Part shown: positions 836-7,989 of the stretch, in pieces
Numbering within the stretch: the stretch's first letter is position 1
Layout of the letters: each line of letters begins with the position of its first letter
Virus record (IMG/VR): IMGVR_UViG_2630968500_000011
Coordinates: 1 to 7,989 of that record
DNA from: a virus
Taxonomy: Duplodnaviria; Heunggongvirae; Uroviricota; Caudoviricetes
DNA: 7,989 nucleotides
Reading direction: 5' to 3' (one strand)
Notes under the pieces: generated by a model
What the model was told of the DNA's origin: nothing
What the model saw: only the letters and a program-made list of their open reading frames with translations
Databases searched by the model: none
Translations under genes and position numbers: made by a program

Positions 836-1753
836 ATGAAATTACCAAAATTTCGTAACGCAATTGTGTACCGAGCAACATTACCTAGTATACAGGCTAT
901 TGAAGGGCATCTTCTCGAACTCCCTTATTCTGAAATCGGGGAAACAGAATTTTCACGGTCCTCTTTTGTAGAGAATCCTGTCACTGGTGAACTGGTAACT
1001 CCGATATCTGGTGGGTACGCAATGGTAATCCGTCATGATCAGAAAATAATTCCCCGACATGTCGTCATGAAAGAAGCTAATTCTCGAATCCAAACAATCG
1101 AAAATATGTCCGGGAATAAATTAAAGCGTGCCGAACGACTGGCCATTATTGATAACGTACGAGTAGATCTATGCAAACAGGCATTTGTTAAGTCTACGCT
1201 GATTCTTGCATTGTACAGCACTGATGAGAAATTATTGGTAATCAACACAACCAATAAAATAATAGCCGGTATGGTATGCGCAATGCTGATTAAGGTTGTC
1301 GGTTCAGTGAAAACAGAAACAATCAACATCAGTGATATCAAGAATGGACTGACTACACGCCTGAAGAACTACATCAATGGTGCAGCCAATGCATTTGAAG
1401 GATTCACTGTCGGGAATTATATTCAGCTATCACGCTACGCAGATCAAAAGGAAATTATTCGCTACTCAGCTGAGCATGAGTCAATTCAAAGCGAACTGGC
1501 CGATAGCCTTAGTAGTAGTTTCACTGCTGATAAAATGGAGTTATCCGGTTGCGGTGTGACCTTCATTCTTACCGAAAATTTCCATTTTTCGCGCATCAAT
1601 ACTCAATCTCAGACATTTAATGATGAAGATGATAAAGCATTCCAGTGGCGTCATCAGACTGGCACTGACCTTTTCCAATTCAGCAAGGTAGTTAATTTGA
1701 TGTGTGACCTTCTTTCTTACAAAGAAGATAAAAGCCAAAATCCAACAACTTAA
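836..1753 (+). CDS. RdgC-like recombination-associated protein (305 aa)
   Basis: ATG at 836 with GAGGAAA RBS at 825-831; the track ORF 686..1753 begins upstream without an RBS. N-terminus KFRNAIVYR and the segment AMVIRHDQKIIPRHVVMK resemble the RdgC family (FKNLMVYR and ICARKEEKILPSPVIKQ in E. coli RdgC, recalled from memory). Length matches the family (~303 aa). Confidence 0.75.
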   Translation: MKLPKFRNAIVYRATLPSIQAIEGHLLELPYSEIGETEFSRSSFVENPVTGELVTPISGGYAMVIRHDQKIIPRHVVMKEANSRIQTIENMSGNKLKRAERLAIIDNVRVDLCKQAFVKSTLILALYSTDEKLLVINTTNKIIAGMVCAMLIKVVGSVKTETINISDIKNGLTTRLKNYINGAANAFEGFTVGNYIQLSRYADQKEIIRYSAEHESIQSELADSLSSSFTADKMELSGCGVTFILTENFHFSRINTQSQTFNDEDDKAFQWRHQTGTDLFQFSKVVNLMCDLLSYKEDKSQNPTT

Positions 1754-1757
1754 AAAA

Positions 1758-1801
1758 ATTGCAGCAATCATCCCATGTCAAATGGGCTGGATTGCTGCAA
1801 T
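1758..1801. repeat. 11-bp perfect inverted repeat (ATTGCAGCAAT ... ATTGCTGCAAT) with nested 5-bp inner hairpin (CCCAT/ATGGG), intergenic
   Basis: Arms at 1758-1768 and 1791-1801. Preceded by an A7 run on the plus strand, so on the minus strand the hairpin is followed by a T7 run and looks like an intrinsic terminator facing antisense transcription. Could also be a protein-binding palindrome. Confidence 0.5.
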
Positions 1802-1842
1802 CAAAATTCAGCGCGGTGCAGCGCATATACGTGGAGAACAAA

Positions 1843-2379
1843 ATGTCATTTATTAAAACTTTTTCCGGGAAGCATTTTTATTATGACAGGATAAATAAAG
1901 ACAACATCGATATTAACGATATCGCGGTTTCCCTTTCAAATATCTGTCGCTTTGCCGGCCATCTTTCACACTTCTACAGCGTCGCCCAACATGCGGTGCT
2001 TTGCAGCCAGCTGGTACCGCAGGAATTTGCTTTTGAAGCGTTAATGCATGATGCAACAGAAGCGTATTGCCAGGACATTCCCTCACCACTGAAACGCCTT
2101 CTTCCTGACTATAAACGGATGGAAGAAAAAATAGACGCCGTAATCCGTGAGAAATACGGGTTACCCCCGGTTATGAGTACGCCCGTGAAATATGCCGATC
2201 TCATCATGCTGGCAACCGAACGCCGCGATCTCGGGCTTGATGATGGCTCTTTCTGGCCTGTACTGGAAGGTATCCCGGCAACAGAGATGTTCAAAGTTAT
2301 TCCACTGTCGCCAGGCCATGCCTATGGGATGTTTATGGAACGTTTTAACGAGTTATCGGAGTTACGCAAATGCGCATGA
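1843..2379 (+). CDS. yfdR: HD-domain 5'-deoxynucleotidase, YfdR/YfbR family (178 aa)
   Basis: ATG at 1843 with GGAGAA RBS at 1833-1838; the track start at 1759 would cover the palindrome and has no RBS. HD-superfamily motifs present: H in VAQHAVL, HD in LMHDATEAY, downstream Asp residues. Length and MSFIKTFSGKHFYYD N-terminus match my recollection of E. coli CPS-53 YfdR. Confidence 0.8.
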   Translation: MSFIKTFSGKHFYYDRINKDNIDINDIAVSLSNICRFAGHLSHFYSVAQHAVLCSQLVPQEFAFEALMHDATEAYCQDIPSPLKRLLPDYKRMEEKIDAVIREKYGLPPVMSTPVKYADLIMLATERRDLGLDDGSFWPVLEGIPATEMFKVIPLSPGHAYGMFMERFNELSELRKCA

Positions 2380-3017
2380 ATGTTTTCGAAATGGAAGGGT
2401 TTCTTCGCGGGAAATGTGTACCGCGAGATCTGAAAGTGAACGAAACAAACGCTGAATATCTGGTGCGTAAATTTGCTGAAGCGGAGGCCAAGATTTCGGC
2501 TCTGTCCGAAGACCACCAGAAAGCGATTGAGTCAATTAAGCAGGCTGATTCGGCTGTTAAGTTGGCACACGAGAAGTTTTCAGCGCTGGCGGCGGAGAAT
2601 GCGGGGCTGAAGTCATTTGGCGACAAGCTTAATGAGATGCATAACGACTTAAACGGCGAAGGCACGGGCATTCAGGGGCGCGCAGAGGTAGCGTGCCAGC
2701 AGGTGGCTCTTGAAGCGGCAATGGAAGAATTTGACGCTATCAAAACTCCAGCCACCGACGCCTTCCTGGATGAAGTGCGGGCGGATGCTCGCAACGAGGG
2801 GATTAACTATACCGCCAGCCGCCTCGCTGCCGCATTCAATCATGGTTTCGTTGATAAGCCGCTGGCTGAAGTCTGCGACGTGGTGCGCATGATTCTGGAC
2901 ACCAAAGAAGAACTGGCAAACTCCACGCTCCCATCGGCTGATGGGATTTCTGGCGAGTACGCAGAGAAGTTTCTCGCAGAGTTCGCCGCCCAACTTCGCC
3001 AGGAGCCAGCCCAATGA
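2370..3017 (+). CDS. hypothetical phage protein, Ala/Glu-rich and probably helical (215 aa)
   Basis: ATG at 2370 with GGAG at 2358-2361 (8-nt spacer); an alternative ATG at 2376 forms an ATGA overlap with the yfdR stop (2377-2379). Stop overlaps the next start (ATGA at 3014-3017). No family recognised. Confidence 0.65.
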   Translation: MRMNVFEMEGFLRGKCVPRDLKVNETNAEYLVRKFAEAEAKISALSEDHQKAIESIKQADSAVKLAHEKFSALAAENAGLKSFGDKLNEMHNDLNGEGTGIQGRAEVACQQVALEAAMEEFDAIKTPATDAFLDEVRADARNEGINYTASRLAAAFNHGFVDKPLAEVCDVVRMILDTKEELANSTLPSADGISGEYAEKFLAEFAAQLRQEPAQ

Positions 3018-3547
3018 GTATCGACAAACAGGCGCTGCGTGAAATCGCAGCGGCAGCAGTTGGCGCACATGAGCGCCTTAGTGTTATGCCGCCTGATGAC
3101 ATTTTCGATATCTCACTGGCAGAAGGAACTCAGCTTGATGCAGATATCACTGCCTTGAACGCGCTGAACTCCGCAGCAAACCCCACTACCGTGCTGGCGA
3201 TGCTGGATGAGTTGGAAGCCGCAAAAAAGCGCATAGCAGAACTGGAGGGGGGCGCATTCAATCCCGCAATTCTTGATGTGGTAGCAGAACGCCAGCGGCA
3301 ACAGTCGGTTGAAGGATGGACTCCTGAACATGACAACGCATATCAAAATAGCGAATTAGCAGATGCAGCGGCTTGTTACGCAATTCATGCGCACAACCAA
3401 GGTTTCTCCACTCCAGCACATTGGCCGTGGTCTCCTGACTGGTGGAAGCAATCAGGAGCACGCCGCGACTTAGTAAAAGCTGGCGCTCTTATTCTGGCAG
3501 AAATTGAACGTATTGACCGCGCCGCTGGCATTGGTAAGGGGGAGTGA
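3014..3547 (+). CDS. Ea22-like (ead) phage protein with a DUF550-like C-terminal region (177 aa)
   Basis: N-terminus MSIDKQALREIAAAA and the segment NPTTVLAMLDELEAAKKRIAELE resemble ead/Ea22-like proteins of lambdoid phages. C-terminal WTPEHDN...HWPWSPDWWKQSGARRDLVKAGALILAEIERIDRA resembles DUF550. Both recalled from memory. ATGA overlap with the upstream gene. Confidence 0.7.
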   Translation: MSIDKQALREIAAAAVGAHERLSVMPPDDIFDISLAEGTQLDADITALNALNSAANPTTVLAMLDELEAAKKRIAELEGGAFNPAILDVVAERQRQQSVEGWTPEHDNAYQNSELADAAACYAIHAHNQGFSTPAHWPWSPDWWKQSGARRDLVKAGALILAEIERIDRAAGIGKGE

Positions 3548-3978
3548 TGCTTCAACATCAAATGCAGCCAACATTTAACACCTGCATGGCTACCTGCGTT
3601 GCAATGGTTGCCGGTCAACCTGTCGATGAGGTAGTGGAACGCTGGCATCAGAAATTCCACGACAAAACAGACTGGCTCGACGACGCGCTGGATTATTACA
3701 AAATCCCGTATTTTTACGGAAGCCAGCGCAAGGCCGAATTGCTTTACGGGTTTATTTACTTCCTGACCGTTCCGTCACTGAACATCAAAGGCGGCCTGCA
3801 TCAGATTCTGATGTCGTTAACGGCAGAACGCGGCATAGAAGTATTTGACCCGGCAATGGGTCGGCCAGGATCAAAATATTACGTTTGGGGTGAAGCGCAG
3901 AACGATGATCAATTCGGCGTTATCTCCTGGTGCGTCGATTTATCGGTTCCGGTAGTGCAACAGAAAGGTGAGGACTAA
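3547..3978 (+). CDS. putative papain-fold cysteine peptidase, C39-like (143 aa)
   Basis: ATG at 3547 overlaps the upstream stop (TGATG at 3545-3549); the track start at 3544 is GTG. Motif order Q(7)...C(13) in QPTFNTCMATCVAMVAG, then His in GGLHQILMSL, then FDPAMG, matches the C39 peptidase Gln/Cys...His...Asp-Pro arrangement. Functional call is an inference. Confidence 0.5.
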   Translation: MLQHQMQPTFNTCMATCVAMVAGQPVDEVVERWHQKFHDKTDWLDDALDYYKIPYFYGSQRKAELLYGFIYFLTVPSLNIKGGLHQILMSLTAERGIEVFDPAMGRPGSKYYVWGEAQNDDQFGVISWCVDLSVPVVQQKGED

Positions 3979-3981
3979 CCC

Positions 3982-4827
3982 ATGAGCACTATTACCAAAG
4001 AACTGGCAAAGCTGTTCAGAAAAATTACGAATTCTGAAATTGATGCGGAGGGAAACGCTCATGTTGTTTTATCTCCTGCTGATAGCCTCCTGATTAATAA
4101 TGCGCGTATCGCGCTGGCATCGCTCGAAGCGGAGCCTGTGGCGTGGGCGCACAGATTAATCAACAAGCGTAACGGAGTCGTTCACCCTTGGGTTTACGGT
4201 AGCGCAGAGGCGTGTCCAAGCGAGGGGGATATCTTCAATATTGAGGTAATGCCGCTCTACACCGTCCCTCCAGCGCCGGTATCTGTGCCCGCTGCGATGG
4301 AAATGGATGATGACTTTGACAGCGCGTTTGAACACGGAAAAGCTGTCGGCTGGAACGCCTATCGCGCCGCCATGCTTCAGGCCGAACCTGTAAGTAATAG
4401 TGATGAGTTACCGCTGGACTATCTGCAAGGACACAAAGACGGCCTGGAGTGGGCTGCACAATTGGCAGAAGCCAATCATCCGCAAACAGGTGACTGGTTG
4501 TACGATGACCCAATCGATCTTGCCAGGGCGATTCGCAAAGGTCCGGATATGCCTACTGTTCAGGGTGGCAATTCTCCGGTAACTCCGGATGCTTGGATAA
4601 GCTGTAGTGAGCGAATGCCAGAAATGGGAGAGCGACAATGCTATGTGTTAGCAGCTGACTTTAAAAACAACTACCCACCAAACATCCCCAACACTCAGGT
4701 CGGCGTATATGGCGACTGGTTTAATGATGGCAATCCCACTTGGGATGACGGTGATGGCGAAGACCTGTATCTCAAAGAGGTAACCCACTGGATGCCTCTA
4801 CCAGAACCGCCGCAGGAGGTAAAGTGA
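3982..4827 (+). CDS. DUF551-domain phage protein (281 aa)
   Basis: ATG at 3982 with AGGTGAGGA RBS at 3966-3974. C-terminal WISCSERMPE...CYVLAA...VTHWMPLPEPP is the characteristic DUF551 signature. N-terminal two thirds have no recognised family. Confidence 0.75.
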   Translation: MSTITKELAKLFRKITNSEIDAEGNAHVVLSPADSLLINNARIALASLEAEPVAWAHRLINKRNGVVHPWVYGSAEACPSEGDIFNIEVMPLYTVPPAPVSVPAAMEMDDDFDSAFEHGKAVGWNAYRAAMLQAEPVSNSDELPLDYLQGHKDGLEWAAQLAEANHPQTGDWLYDDPIDLARAIRKGPDMPTVQGGNSPVTPDAWISCSERMPEMGERQCYVLAADFKNNYPPNIPNTQVGVYGDWFNDGNPTWDDGDGEDLYLKEVTHWMPLPEPPQEVK

Positions 4828-5399
4828 TGAACAACTTAATGATCGACCTTGAGACGATGGGGAAAAATAAGGATGCGCCGATCGTTTCTATTGGCGCAGT
4901 GTTCTTCACCCCAGAAACCGGAGACATCGGACAAGAATTCTATGCGGCTGTCAGCTTGGACAGTGCTATGGAGCAAGGGGCCACACCTGACGGCGACACC
5001 ATCCTGTGGTGGTTGAAACAAAGCCCTGAAGCACGAGCTGCAATCTGTATTGATGATACTTTGTCGATCAGCGATGCACTCTCTGAACTGAGCCATTTCA
5101 TTAATCGGCACGCAGACAATACGAAATATTTAAAAGTCTGGGGTAACGGAGCCAACTTCGACAACGTAATTTTACGCGGAGCTTATGAGCGAGCAGGACA
5201 AATCTGCCCATGGGCGTACTGGAATGATCACGATGCGCGCACGATCGTTACGCTTGGGCGTTCCATCGGATTCGACCCAAAAATGGACATGCCTTTCGAT
5301 GGCGAACGGCACAACGCCCTGGCTGATGCTCGTCATCAGGCAAAATATGTTTCCGCTATCTGGCAGAAATTAATTCCTGCCACCAGCACAGAATTATGA
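4827..5399 (+). CDS. DEDDh-family 3'-5' exonuclease, Rv2179c-like phage exonuclease (190 aa)
   Basis: ATG at 4827 overlaps the upstream stop (TGATG), with AGGAGG RBS at 4814-4819; track start 4824 is GTG. Exo motifs: MIDLETMG (D, E), WGNGANFD (D), HNALADARH (H...D). TILWWLKQ matches the phage Rv2179c-like subfamily. Confidence 0.8.
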   Translation: MNNLMIDLETMGKNKDAPIVSIGAVFFTPETGDIGQEFYAAVSLDSAMEQGATPDGDTILWWLKQSPEARAAICIDDTLSISDALSELSHFINRHADNTKYLKVWGNGANFDNVILRGAYERAGQICPWAYWNDHDARTIVTLGRSIGFDPKMDMPFDGERHNALADARHQAKYVSAIWQKLIPATSTEL

Positions 5400-5435
5400 T
5401 TTTCCCGGGTGCAGCCGGTTTTGATGGAGAAAATT

Positions 5436-5717
5436 ATGAACACCTTGTTTTTACTGATGGCTGAATTCAATACCCCTAACATTGAACTCTCAGCAGTTAG
5501 CCAAAAGTACTTTGGCATGAGTCCAGCCACGGCAGAAGCAAAAGCAAACGCTTGTAAGTTGCCCGTTCCAACATATCGCATCGGCACATCACAAAAAGCA
5601 AAACGTTGCATCAATATTCAGGATCTTGCGGAATACATAGACAAAAGACGAGAAGAAGGACGTATCGAGTGGGAACAGGTCAGAACAAGCAAACAGAAGG
5701 GCAAAGAACATCACTAA
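5436..5717 (+). CDS. PrtN-family (pyocin-activator-like) DNA-binding protein; probable excisionase/recombination directionality factor or regulator (93 aa)
   Basis: ATG at 5436 with GGAGA at 5426-5430 (5-nt spacer); alternative starts at ATG 5424 and GTG 5409. MNTLFLLMAEF...YFGMSPATAEAKANACKLPVPTYRIG...IQDLAEYIDKRR resembles the PrtN family. Terminal position before a terminator fits an Xis-like role (inference). Confidence 0.7.
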   Translation: MNTLFLLMAEFNTPNIELSAVSQKYFGMSPATAEAKANACKLPVPTYRIGTSQKAKRCINIQDLAEYIDKRREEGRIEWEQVRTSKQKGKEHH

Positions 5718-5720
5718 AGA

Positions 5721-5748
5721 AAAAACCCGCCTAAAGGCGGGTTTTCAA
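5721..5748. terminator. bidirectional rho-independent terminator shared by convergent genes
   Basis: AAAAAACCCGCC-TAAA-GGCGGGTTTTC: GC-rich stem (5725-5731 / 5736-5742), 4-nt loop, T-run on the plus strand and T6 on the minus strand. Lies 4 nt after the plus-strand stop (5715-5717) and 17 nt after the minus-strand stop (5765-5767). Confidence 0.8.
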
Positions 5749-5764
5749 AAAGCACCAGCTATGA

Positions 5765-5938
5765 TCATGCTGCTTTGCGACGACGAAGCTTACCCTGCTG
5801 CTCTTTACCAGAGACAGTAGCGTGAGTGAACGCATTAGGAGCAGCCTTCATCAGAACTTCAACAGCAGCACCCATACCTGCGAATGCTTTCATTGTGTCG
5901 AACTTAACCTGTGGCTTGGTTGCTTTTTGATCTTTCAT
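5765..5938 (-). CDS. small basic protein, 57 aa (MKDQKATKPQVKFDTMKAFAGMGAAVEVLMKAAPNAFTHATVSGKEQQGKLRRRKAA); function unknown
   Basis: Not in the ORF track. Hand translation of the minus strand: ATG at 5938..5936 preceded by GGGAG (complement of 5945-5949) with a 6-nt spacer, stop at 5767..5765, then the strong terminator. No family recognised. Confidence 0.6.
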   Translation of the reverse strand: MKDQKATKPQVKFDTMKAFAGMGAAVEVLMKAAPNAFTHATVSGKEQQGKLRRRKAA

Positions 5939-6008
5939 AGAAAACTCCCGAGACAGTAAAGGCGTCTCTAACCCTCTCTTTAAAGCTAGCTTGTTTCGCT
6001 AACTTATG

Positions 6009-6029
6009 CCAATCGATCATGTCGATTGG
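6009..6029. repeat. 21-bp palindrome CCAATCGA-tcatg-TCGATTGG, candidate operator
   Basis: Perfect 8-bp arms with a 5-nt spacer, about 70-90 bp upstream of the small-ORF start. No adjacent T-run, so not a terminator. Confidence 0.4.
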
Positions 6030-6104
6030 TGACATCGTTTCTTAGTAGTTTAAGCACAAAACGACTGCCATAGATGTACCTTTAAGGTAATCTGGACGGG
6101 TATC

Positions 6105-6117
6105 CTACAATTTGTAG
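6105..6117. repeat. 13-bp palindrome CTACAA-t-TTGTAG
   Basis: 6-bp perfect arms around a single central base, 18 bp downstream of the stop of the minus-strand 177-aa gene. Could be a binding site or a weak hairpin. Confidence 0.3.
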
Positions 6118-6134
6118 ACCCTTCTCGTCTATAC

Positions 6135-6668
6135 CTACTGAGCAAATTTAAGAAAGATATCCTGCAGCTCATCAATGACTGCAGACATCACATAACCGCA
6201 CTGTTCCATGCGGAAACCAAAAGACTCGTAATACTGCACCAGTTCTGGTACTGGCTCTACAATGTGGACAACTTTACATTCAACAGCTTTACAAAATATA
6301 AAAGCACTCATAAGAGTGAGTAAAACCATGCGCCCTTTCAATGGGTGAGATTCATCTTCTCTAGAAAACCTTTCGATCATATGGATACGAAAGATGTTTT
6401 CTTCAACCCCATAAACACAAATTGCTGCTCCTGATGGTATTCCCTGAACCCGACCTTGCTGAACAAGTTTTATGCAGAACTCATACTTTTCTCTGGAGTT
6501 GCCATAGGTACTTAACGCATAGTCCCATTCAAGCTCACCATAGCCACCACACAGAATCTTGTAATCATCATCACTGAGCGGACCAACAGCAAGAGGTAAG
6601 CCGACATGATCAATAATCAACTGGATATTGTTACGTACTGATTGACCTATCTCGTCCAGGGTAAGCAT
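6135..6668 (-). CDS. hypothetical protein (177 aa), AT-rich gene; tentative GNAT-related / acyltransferase-like fold
   Basis: ORF 6135..6671 minus; the second ATG (6668..6666) is better placed behind GAGAGG. The ELEWDY and IERFSRE segments and a C-terminal beta-alpha pattern (KVVHIVEPVPELVQYYESFGF) loosely resemble GNAT-fold or LuxI-type acyltransferases. Weak, memory-based. Confidence 0.6.
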   Translation of the reverse strand: MLTLDEIGQSVRNNIQLIIDHVGLPLAVGPLSDDDYKILCGGYGELEWDYALSTYGNSREKYEFCIKLVQQGRVQGIPSGAAICVYGVEENIFRIHMIERFSREDESHPLKGRMVLLTLMSAFIFCKAVECKVVHIVEPVPELVQYYESFGFRMEQCGYVMSAVIDELQDIFLKFAQ

Positions 6669-6700
6669 CATGGCCTCTCAAGCGGAACACTAAAAGTCGC

Positions 6701-6706
6701 ATTATA
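6701..6706 (-). promoter_or_regulatory. candidate -10 hexamer (TATAAT on minus strand) for the 177-aa gene
   Basis: Perfect TATAAT on the minus strand, 29 nt upstream of the start codon. No convincing -35 element. Confidence 0.25.
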
Positions 6707-7218
6707 TCTCATTCTTAAGCCGCGTATGGATTACACCTTGAAATGAAAACGCCGGGTTCCCAATAGGCTCCCACAGAGTGTATAACTACTTGTTTTTCAA
6801 CAACGGTACATCCTATCGAGCATTGGTGCAACGCTAAACCGACCACTCCAGTGAACGTCAGTTTTTTCAGGCATTGCGCTGGTTTGGTTGATTTTTTGCA
6901 TTTCAGAATTACCGTGCATTTTCAAATGTAGAGATTATTTTATCGATATATCATGGGGTTATGTTATTCAGCATCACTGTTCAGGAGGCTCAATAGCGGG
7001 GTACTATACCATAACAACAGGAAGCGCCTGTCTCATTGCAAAAGAAAATTGAGATCCTCTCAAGGCATGAAGCTCTCACGAAGTGATGGAAATAATCTTA
7101 TTAGCCGTTAACTTTGTTAAGGCCAATGATAAACAATCCAGGTTCGACGATAAATAAAAAATCACACATTAAACTCTGGTAATATATCTCCCTGCTAATA
7201 GCATTGATAGAGAAAAAA

Positions 7219-7245
7219 GAACCCAATAAATATTGGGTCCTTTTA
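7219..7245. terminator. candidate intrinsic terminator downstream of the truncated minus-strand gene (bidirectional-looking)
   Basis: Stem ACCCAA / TTGGGT (7221-7226 / 7233-7238) with 6-nt loop. Flanked by TCTTTTTTCT on the minus strand and CCTTTT on the plus strand. Lies 37 nt downstream of the stop at 7282-7284. Confidence 0.5.
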
Positions 7246-7281
7246 TATAATGCCTTCCATACTATCGAAGAACTTCACATA

Positions 7282-7989
7282 TTATTTCTCCGATTTAACC
7301 CCGAACAAATCATAAATTAATTTAGAAGTGTCTGTAAGTATTTTAATCTCTTCCTTTGAGGTTGGGTCAAACGACTTCGCGAAGCTAATTAATTGTGGTG
7401 CAGCATCTCGCATTTTGCTTAAAATATCAGGATCGAGCGTTCCTTCATTCACCAGATGTGACATCTTATCCAGATAGCCATCAAAATTCATTTCTCCCCC
7501 ATCAGCCAGACGCTTCATCTCTCCCAGGTACTTCTTCATATCACGTTGAGATAATTTTTCAAACTGAGCTTTCAGGTAGCTCTCATTATTTTCATTAATA
7601 TACACTGTTTCTGATAAATCTGCGTAGGCACTAGAATATGAAAGTGAAATTAACAGCGAAGCAAATAATTTTAAGCTGTTGTCATCATGTTCCTGGCAGG
7701 CATTAACAAACGTTAAAAAACCAGAACCTATTGCTTGAAAATGTATATTCGCTAAAGGTTCATTATCCTTAGATTCCTCATAAAATAGCTGAACCGTGGA
7801 GGGAAGGTCATTCTTAGTTTCTACATCAAAAGTACATTGTTCAATGGGCATTGCATCTTTATTATCCCCAAGATTACATATACTATTAATCGCGAAATGA
7901 AAAATAGCCCGGTCAACAACTGATGCAATAAAGTCACGATCGTTTAAATCCTCATCAGTGCAATCGTCAATATACTTATTGACCCACAT
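7282..7989 (-). CDS. C-terminal part (at least 235 aa) of a hypothetical protein on AT-rich DNA; gene continues beyond the window end
   Basis: Minus-strand frame open from the window edge to TAA at 7284..7282. Coding-like composition. The Met at the edge may be internal. No family recognised. Confidence 0.6.
   Translation of the reverse strand: MWVNKYIDDCTDEDLNDRDFIASVVDRAIFHFAINSICNLGDNKDAMPIEQCTFDVETKNDLPSTVQLFYEESKDNEPLANIHFQAIGSGFLTFVNACQEHDDNSLKLFASLLISLSYSSAYADLSETVYINENNESYLKAQFEKLSQRDMKKYLGEMKRLADGGEMNFDGYLDKMSHLVNEGTLDPDILSKMRDAAPQLISFAKSFDPTSKEEIKILTDTSKLIYDLFGVKSEK

Follow-up and report, generated by a model that had tools for sequence, protein, structure and literature searches.

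A divergent GNAT-fold enzyme and its small partner form a cargo cassette of Enterobacterales prophages

The last cargo gene of a dusA-integrated lambdoid prophage encodes a 177-residue protein that is, judged by its predicted structure, a real GNAT-fold enzyme, very divergent and without a clear nearest subfamily. In all loci examined (11 or more genera, two phages and at least five kinds of genomic position) a co-oriented gene for a small protein of 52–92 residues lies 3′ of it. Our tentative reading, which may well hold without yet counting as probable, is that the small protein keeps the acetyltransferase in check, the two forming a toxin–antitoxin-like or exclusion cassette expressed in the lysogen. 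The fold itself is ordinary; the family appears to be undescribed, as do its hotspot behaviour and the mini-protein that obligately accompanies it, and a literature search on the phage name, the protein accessions and GNAT, prophage and defence topics found no characterisation of either protein.

The prophage end and its GNAT-fold protein

The DNA analysed (7,989 nucleotides, hereafter the window) is a segment of E. coli chromosome, 100% identical to strain G5, that covers the right end of the prophage (Table 1). Prophage genes on the plus strand run in the order rdgC, yfdR (HD phosphatase), Ead/Ea22, DUF551, 3′–5′ exonuclease and PrtN-type excisionase; after the excisionase come two minus-strand genes annotated 'hypothetical', a 5′ fragment of dusA and yjbM (DUF2713). 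Comparison with a sister prophage and with the attP of phage mEp460, which has its own copy of the dusA 5′ end (roughly 85–90% similar; mEp460 locus 4700–4950), places the attR crossover at ~6804–6823, within the dusA fragment; the RefSeq annotation has a dusA pseudogene at 6815–6919. The 610 bp 5′ of the GNAT gene (6672–7281) had been called an upstream spacer in the earlier note, to be searched in homologues, with its flanks, for a small antitoxin-like ORF. This region holds the attR junction, the dusA fragment, a promoter-like site and the yjbM terminator; it contains no such ORF, but a conserved small one, termed orf57 here, lies downstream of the GNAT gene.

Table 1 Coordinates of the GNAT cassette and its surroundings in the window
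Feature	Position	Strand	Remarks
PrtN-type excisionase gene	5409..5717	+	last gene of the early-left operon; convergent with the cassette
Bidirectional intrinsic terminator	5721..5746		strong, 11-bp stem; closes the cassette on the side of the convergent excisionase gene
orf57, 57-aa partner CDS	5765..5938	-	mEp460 gp24; PHROG 2741; ends ...KEQQGKLRRRKAA
Hairpin GAGAC-N9-GTCTC (5950-5968) and orf57 Shine-Dalgarno GGGAG (5945-5949)	5945..5968	-	abutting
Intercistronic spacer, 196 nt	5939..6134	-	conserved hairpins
Exchangeable unit	~5952..6754	-	promoter region, GNAT gene and spacer replaced; orf57 left in place
Conserved palindrome CCAATCGA-N5-TCGATTGG	6009..6029		within the spacer
Divergent GNAT-fold acyltransferase CDS, 177 aa	6135..6668	-	identical to mEp460 gp23 and RefSeq WP_000956557.1; PHROG 4350
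Putative -10-like box TATAAT	6701..6706	-	conserved; ~33 nt 5′ of the GNAT start codon
Orphaned host dusA 5′ fragment	6797..6925	-	42-codon ORF: MKMHGNSEMQKINQTSAMPEKTDVHWSGRFSVAPMLD, then residues of phage origin
Sigma-70 promoter-like site TTAACA-17-GATTAT	7092..7120	-	upstream of the dusA fragment; consensus match only

Several further features of the window lie outside the cassette. The gene yjbM is present only as a 235-aa C-terminal ORF (7282–7989, with a full-length PF10897 match); it is frameshifted according to the strain G5 annotation (G5 locus 13883–14868). Two early-operon ORFs (2370–3017, 215 aa, annotated hypothetical; 3544–3978, 144 aa, with a Pfam match at chance level only) are without family assignment. 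On the plus strand, 492–715 gives a sub-threshold Rfam match to STnc100 (43.4 bits, E 5e-7; the gathering score is 47). E. coli K1 has an ArcA-regulated 193-nt sRNA, sRNA-17, on an mEp460-like prophage (PMC7719688), and the initial 21 nt of this sRNA match 685–705 on the minus strand with one mismatch; the 3′-RACE primer of the same study is absent from the window, and the STnc100 and sRNA-17 annotations are on opposite strands. The 685–705 stretch, which lies upstream of rdgC, has the look of a 'degenerate sRNA-17' copy. Equating sRNA-17 with the 196-bp spacer between the GNAT gene and orf57 was rejected, as the sequence maps to ~685–705. In the methods of PMC7719688, 'intergenic regions' were defined once all genes annotated hypothetical had been deleted; prophage regions with real, unnamed genes were therefore screened as non-coding, and its sRNA calls should be used with that definition in mind.

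The ORF singled out by the earlier note is a real gene under purifying selection (dN/dS against homologues 0.04–0.14 where dS is measurable and not saturated), although its strand, which the note had left unstated, is minus. An adjacent upstream in-frame ATG at 6671 would give a product of 178 residues. Its setting, described earlier as an 'AT-rich island', is only mildly so (GC 0.40–0.44 against 0.50–0.56 in the adjoining early genes). Main-clade copies of the protein are all strongly acidic (pI 4.5–4.9, net charge -8 to -15), and the protein matches phrog_4350, a family of unknown function, across the full-length profile (2.3e-103 over 2–178). A word-indexed search gave 48 homologue clusters at ≥58% identity, and a profile search run exhaustively over 1.84 billion representatives found no more than 79. 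This small family is confined to Enterobacterales, their phages and prophages, and its named members are all 'hypothetical'. Neither Pfam nor NCBIfam yields a match to the protein at E ≤ 1, including the three profiles proposed for checking (PF00765, PF13444 and PF00583); one relative of 58 reaches PF00583, at E 0.0058. PADLOC-DB v2.0 has no match at E ≤ 1 for the GNAT protein, orf57 or the neighbouring gene. With a profile of 58 distant members, nourseothricin acetyltransferase is matched weakly and in register (E 0.0077). PDB sequence matches of the single protein and of a close profile (engineered gp41 and armadillo constructs) were rejected as chance.

Structure prediction with 34 homologues (pLDDT 78.7, pTM 0.80, above 85 in the C-terminal two-thirds) gives elements in the order α0, β1, α1, α2, β2–4, α3, β5, α4, β6 and a C-terminal helix, which contains the superfamily topology β1-α1-α2-β2-β3-β4-α3-β5-α4-β6. 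Foldseek places KacT as the top PDB match (E 7e-6, TM ~0.55), with Gcn5, SpeG, NatD, AtaT and RimJ inside a tenfold E-value range of it; TacT2/3 and 7byy also score, and the viral structures of BFVD return generic GNAT matches only. Identity to the NatD (Naa40), Gcn5 and RimI/RimJ class is 8–14%, and the present family differs from that class in a degenerate acetyl-CoA loop, an extra N-terminal helix and a restriction to Enterobacterales phages and prophages. The most conserved residues among 58 members are W48 (58/58), Y147 (56/58) and E99 (48/58, Gln in nine), with G112 (43/58), L110, P139 and G151–F152 as further conserved positions. E99 lies in β4, G112 in the β4–α3 loop and Y147 in α4; a β4 Glu and an α4 Tyr occupy the usual general-base and general-acid positions of the GNAT superfamily. 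At the position of the acetyl-CoA loop, Q/RxxGxG/A, the protein reads H-P-L-K-G-R-M, with Pro for Q/R, Met for G/A and the central Gly, G112, as sole survivor. We take the protein to be, probably, a catalytically competent acyl-CoA N-acyltransferase.

The earlier note had seen a LuxI/GNAT resemblance in two segments, GGYGELEWDY and HMIERFSRE, which are indeed present (residues 41–50 and 96–104). Structure prediction and Foldseek bear out the GNAT part. The LuxI part, and with it the idea of a signal synthase, finds no such counterpart: PF00765 is not matched by the protein at E ≤ 1 or by any of 58 relatives at E ≤ 0.1, LasI, matched in structure, is 4% identical, and no LuxR-type gene occurs among annotated or Pfam-labelled neighbours in the loci whose gene tables were inspected. 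LuxI-type membership is effectively refuted.

A small partner in changing genomic contexts

Window proteins were compared by tblastn with every collected locus, spanning E. coli, Salmonella, Pseudescherichia, Franconibacter, Enterobacter, Hafnia, Edwardsiella, Brenneria, Serratia, Photorhabdus and Xenorhabdus together with phages mEp460 and Eeyore. An orf57 homologue lies immediately downstream of the GNAT gene, in the same orientation, in every main-clade locus; integrase, excisionase and exonuclease genes show no such constant association with the GNAT gene. The cassette is integrase-proximal in dusA prophages, and elsewhere sits 40 bp beyond a cI-type repressor gene (Brenneria), between the Q antiterminator and genes for methylase or lysis functions, within a tail/baseplate gene cluster (Photorhabdus), in an island adjoining smpB or next to cas3 (Xenorhabdus). 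Because these positions differ between loci, we regard the pair as an autonomous mobile cassette. Enzyme and partner co-diverge, down to 38–42% identity.

Some of the host prophages carry other genes of note. In Hafnia-type prophages and metagenomes (L038–L045, ~995–3111) a RelA_SpoT-domain gene of 319–352 aa, possibly toxSAS/CapRel-like, lies directly upstream of the cassette, and a Serratia prophage (L056, 5488–5769) has an Acb2/Tad1-hairpin family gene in its lysis region. Slots of this late region appear to be hotspots rich in cargo.

Distant GNAT branches keep a small downstream gene drawn from other sequence families. A basic 57-aa partner of 'DFW.SLDG' type is found on an E. kobei plasmid and in Salmonella, and a 67-aa 'APKGEAAGK' type on a Citrobacter plasmid; the Pantoea partner (52 aa) is acidic (pI 4.05) beside a near-neutral enzyme (pI 6.65), and that of Proteus (92 aa) is acidic also. 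In Providencia alcalifaciens a chromosomal gene (L060, 2501–3241) joins the two in a single 246-aa chain: residues 1–180 resemble the Citrobacter GNAT (36% identity, 1e-43) and residues 198–240 the Citrobacter 67-aa partner (37% identity, 2e-9). Of the sequence evidence presented here, this Rosetta-stone fusion argues most strongly that the two are directly linked in function. The cross-context pairing and the fusion led us to reject, as the main reading, the view of orf57 as a mere neighbour, which is retained among the alternatives below. The fusion gene sits between a PTS gene and TauE/glnS, and since no phage genes are called among its neighbours within 2.5 kb, it may be a domesticated cassette.

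The window's orf57 product is basic (pI 10.5, nine Lys and three Arg) and matches phrog_2741, also of unknown function, across its full-length profile (8.1e-36 over 1–57). Main-clade partners have a pI of 9.4–10.8, and most copies have 8–12 Lys. A single helix, at about residues 23–37, is predicted in an otherwise mostly disordered protein (pLDDT 61), which has neither a Pfam domain nor a recognisable DNA-binding domain. Its core, FDT...GAAVEVL.KAAP...QGK, follows the main-clade pattern (F/V)DT...G.A(V/I)(D/E).L.(K/R)AAP...E.QG(K/R), and the C terminus of main-clade partners is always a basic run followed by AA, AAA or AVA. The orf57 tail, ...EQQGKLRRRKAA, resembles in sequence both the MuA C-motif-2 ClpX degron, CILEQNRRKKAI, and the ssrA ending, ...ALAA (quoted in PMC12723719); because of this MuA/ssrA-like tail, turnover of the protein by ClpXP is suggested. 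Within Enterobacteriaceae the partner is 88–98% identical, against 65–89% for the enzyme. Its dS is low (0.08–0.55) next to a GNAT gene whose synonymous sites are saturated, and orf57 forms an island of 80–100% nucleotide identity even between unrelated flanks. RNA-level constraint, codon bias and a role as recombination anchor are possible reasons for the low dS.

The exchangeable slot and its control regions

The whole cassette occurs in 358 of 5,426 complete E. coli genomes (~7%), many of them O157:H7, and ~200 complete E. coli genomes have the orf57 part only, without the GNAT gene. Four such loci were inspected (L034–L037; E. coli SLK172, O25b:H4 and others). In each, the GNAT slot is filled by a Panacea-domain gene (190 aa, PF13274 match 1.8e-18) and a gene for a 128-aa protein, a presumed toxin with no Pfam or PADLOC match (pair at locus positions 1486–2687); orf57 follows 39 nt beyond the pair. 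The proteins are unrelated to those of the GNAT cassette, the intergenic gaps are short, and the structured spacer is absent. This candidate PanA-type pair appears to be undescribed. Panacea proteins are known antitoxins (PMC8832971; PMC9177977), and the GNAT gene therefore alternates with a toxin–antitoxin pair as cargo; the sharing of exactly the same slot, from attR to orf57, implies a functionally interchangeable cargo class. The Panacea-type arrangement, at 97–99% identity, may go back to a single recombination event, so the swap weighs little against the partnership of orf57 with the enzyme.

Loss of one gene or the other is asymmetric. Wherever an intact GNAT gene occurs in the loci examined, a small partner gene lies downstream. 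Photorhabdus temperata (L019) keeps an intact small gene beside a GNAT gene that is truncated and twice frameshifted. Disruption is more frequent among orphan orf57 copies, recognised by K2E, than among those linked to a GNAT gene (16/203 versus 2/139 distinct sequences, Fisher p = 0.012, a comparison to which sampling caveats apply). The linked pair moves together, and the partner is dispensable only where the effector is missing, as toxin–antitoxin modules in general would have it; this one-way asymmetry is the pattern expected if the GNAT protein is harmful and orf57 protective.

The spacer between the two genes is highly structured when folded (MFE -60.3 kcal/mol, z -3.2, with 0 of 200 shuffles as stable), and three hairpins in it are conserved. 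Ten aligned spacers contain no double-compensatory pairs, only one-sided, wobble-compatible changes. On this modelling the spacer is probably a structured RNA or a regulatory region for orf57 expression and may include a processing site; the palindrome inside it would be an operator or form an RNA hairpin. Inspection by eye shows hairpins like the GAGAC/GTCTC element that abuts the orf57 Shine–Dalgarno sequence in the copies of Hafnia, Photorhabdus and Xenorhabdus.

Upstream of the GNAT gene, the putative -10-like box reads GGTACAAT or GGTAAACT in other genera; in the window it has no convincing -35 and is not called by a promoter scan. The sigma-70-like site further upstream is, from its sequence and position, presumably the host dusA promoter; in the lysogen this site and the dusA 5′ fragment are directed into the cassette. 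No terminator is predicted between this site and the one that closes the cassette, and such a layout would make expression of the cargo dependent on integration.

Proposed function and its alternatives

We propose that temperate phages of Enterobacterales carry an autonomous cargo ('moron') cassette of two genes, with the GNAT gene first. In this scheme, the small, basic and largely disordered protein would bind and restrain the acidic enzyme, and the pair, expressed from the prophage, would act like a toxin–antitoxin or abortive-infection/exclusion module. Continuous orf57 synthesis would hold the acetyltransferase inactive; once synthesis stopped, or orf57 were removed, the enzyme would acetylate a cationic cellular or phage target other than tRNA. 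The scheme builds on the fold, the conserved Glu, Tyr and Gly positions, the fusion, the obligate synteny, the charge complementarity, the Panacea swap and the location in hotspots; binding, inhibition, lability, toxicity, the kind of target and any anti-phage phenotype are inferred. Several observations pull against this reading. There is no PADLOC match, and the enzyme-first order and long structured spacer are unlike GNAT/DUF1778 systems. The partner is without a recognisable DNA-binding domain and is more conserved than the enzyme, with low synonymous divergence, which is atypical of antitoxins. In some genomes it also follows the Panacea pair, which should already have its own antitoxin. 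A protease-labile antitoxin does not sit easily with covalent fusion, the canonical loop is reduced to P-L-K-G-R-M, and the charge complementarity seen in the main clade is not universal (Pantoea, Proteus). The acidic enzyme, moreover, is an unlikely tRNA binder, unlike known GNAT toxins. A fuller version of the scheme we regard as rather doubtful: a new prophage two-component class, widespread among E. coli O157:H7, Salmonella and further Enterobacterales, in which an acidic GNAT effector would be silenced by a rapidly exchangeable, disordered basic mini-protein (cis-fused in one lineage). Synthesis of the mini-protein would be gated by the structured intercistronic RNA and its level controlled through ClpXP; were it lost, with the prophage or under phage attack, a non-tRNA cationic target would be acetylated.

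The same two genes can be read with their roles altered. The GNAT protein may acetylate the small basic protein, on lysines or at its N terminus, and so switch its activity; were the small protein harmful, the GNAT protein would be a type VII-like enzymatic antitoxin. We think this unlikely. The small gene is intact beside the GNAT pseudogene of P. temperata and in ~200 E. coli genomes that are GNAT-less, and as this reading needs the GNAT protein for neutralisation or activation, an intact orphan orf57 would either kill the cell or serve no purpose; other branches, besides, have partners unrelated in sequence, and acidic ones in Pantoea and Proteus. It is likewise improbable, in our judgement, that the enzyme stands alone, as a conversion or counter-defence GNAT that acetylates a cationic small molecule (polyamine, aminoglycoside or peptide-nucleotide antibiotic) or a host or phage protein to the advantage of lysogen or phage, with orf57 only a conserved neighbour or recombination anchor with a function of its own. 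SpeG and the aminoglycoside and streptothricin acetyltransferases do appear among the fold and profile matches, an acidic enzyme suits cationic substrates, and orf57 is kept when the GNAT gene is swapped out, its nucleotide-identity island being one that could anchor recombination. Against this stand the pairing in all loci examined, across at least five unrelated contexts and with co-divergence of both proteins, the presence of a small partner in every branch of the family, covalently fused in one, and the more frequent decay of orphan orf57 copies.

A narrower form of our favoured toxin–antitoxin-like reading would make the enzyme a TacT/AtaT/KacT-type toxin acetylating aminoacyl-tRNA. The present family shares with the GNAT/DUF1778 type II systems (TacAT, AtaRT, KacAT and ItaRT; PMC9177977) a GNAT-fold enzyme of ~160–180 aa, a conserved α4 Tyr and a two-gene organisation with a small partner on mobile elements, and KacT is its best Foldseek match in the PDB. 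There is nonetheless no detectable sequence relationship. GNAT toxins of this family are defined by an adjacent antitoxin gene of DUF1778 (RHH) or DUF4065 type (PMC9177977), whereas upstream of the window's GNAT gene lies the attR/dusA fragment and the downstream partner, beyond a structured spacer of 90–240 nt, has no Pfam domain, is of neither type and is without a DNA-binding fold. Scores do not separate toxins (AtaT, TacT2/3 and 7byy among them) from Gcn5, NatD, SpeG or RimJ, and any Pfam GNAT match is confined to the single relative noted above. The position of Y147 in α4 is, we presume, the catalytic one of the TacT/AtaT/KacT toxins. Because the enzyme is so strongly acidic, with a pI of 4.3–4.9 unsuited to tRNA binding, aminoacyl-tRNA is an unlikely substrate, and we hold this narrower form to be highly unlikely. 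Least probable by far is a LuxI-type acyl-homoserine-lactone synthase, given the profile, identity and neighbourhood results above, with a gene that occupies phage cargo slots beside a small basic partner.

Other known systems share the architecture rather than the parts. Like lambda rexAB and other lysogen-expressed exclusion morons, the cassette occupies cargo positions (after cI in Brenneria, which is the rexAB slot in lambda; integrase-proximal; between Q and lysis genes), has its own terminator and is exchanged as a module; proteins and mechanism are unrelated, RexA/RexB being a membrane system and ours a predicted acetyltransferase. With its single chain, the Providencia relative recalls CapRel-type fused toxin–antitoxins, in which an effector has a cis-acting regulatory tail, and the Hafnia cassette adjoins a RelA_SpoT-domain gene. 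The effector chemistry is different, and the Providencia tail is not known to sense a phage protein.

Every annotation of the GNAT family reads 'hypothetical', and Pfam, NCBIfam and PADLOC lack a model for it, yet it is carried by ~7% of complete E. coli genomes, by many Salmonella and Enterobacter prophages and by the sequenced phage mEp460. The Panacea swap defines a compact, searchable hotspot in dusA-integrating phages, attR-[cargo]-orf57-terminator-xis, which could be mined for more systems. If the pair is a toxin–antitoxin-like or exclusion module, it would extend the defence and toxin–antitoxin repertoire by a GNAT effector whose target is not tRNA and by a small neutraliser of a new kind, and two PHROG families would gain a function.
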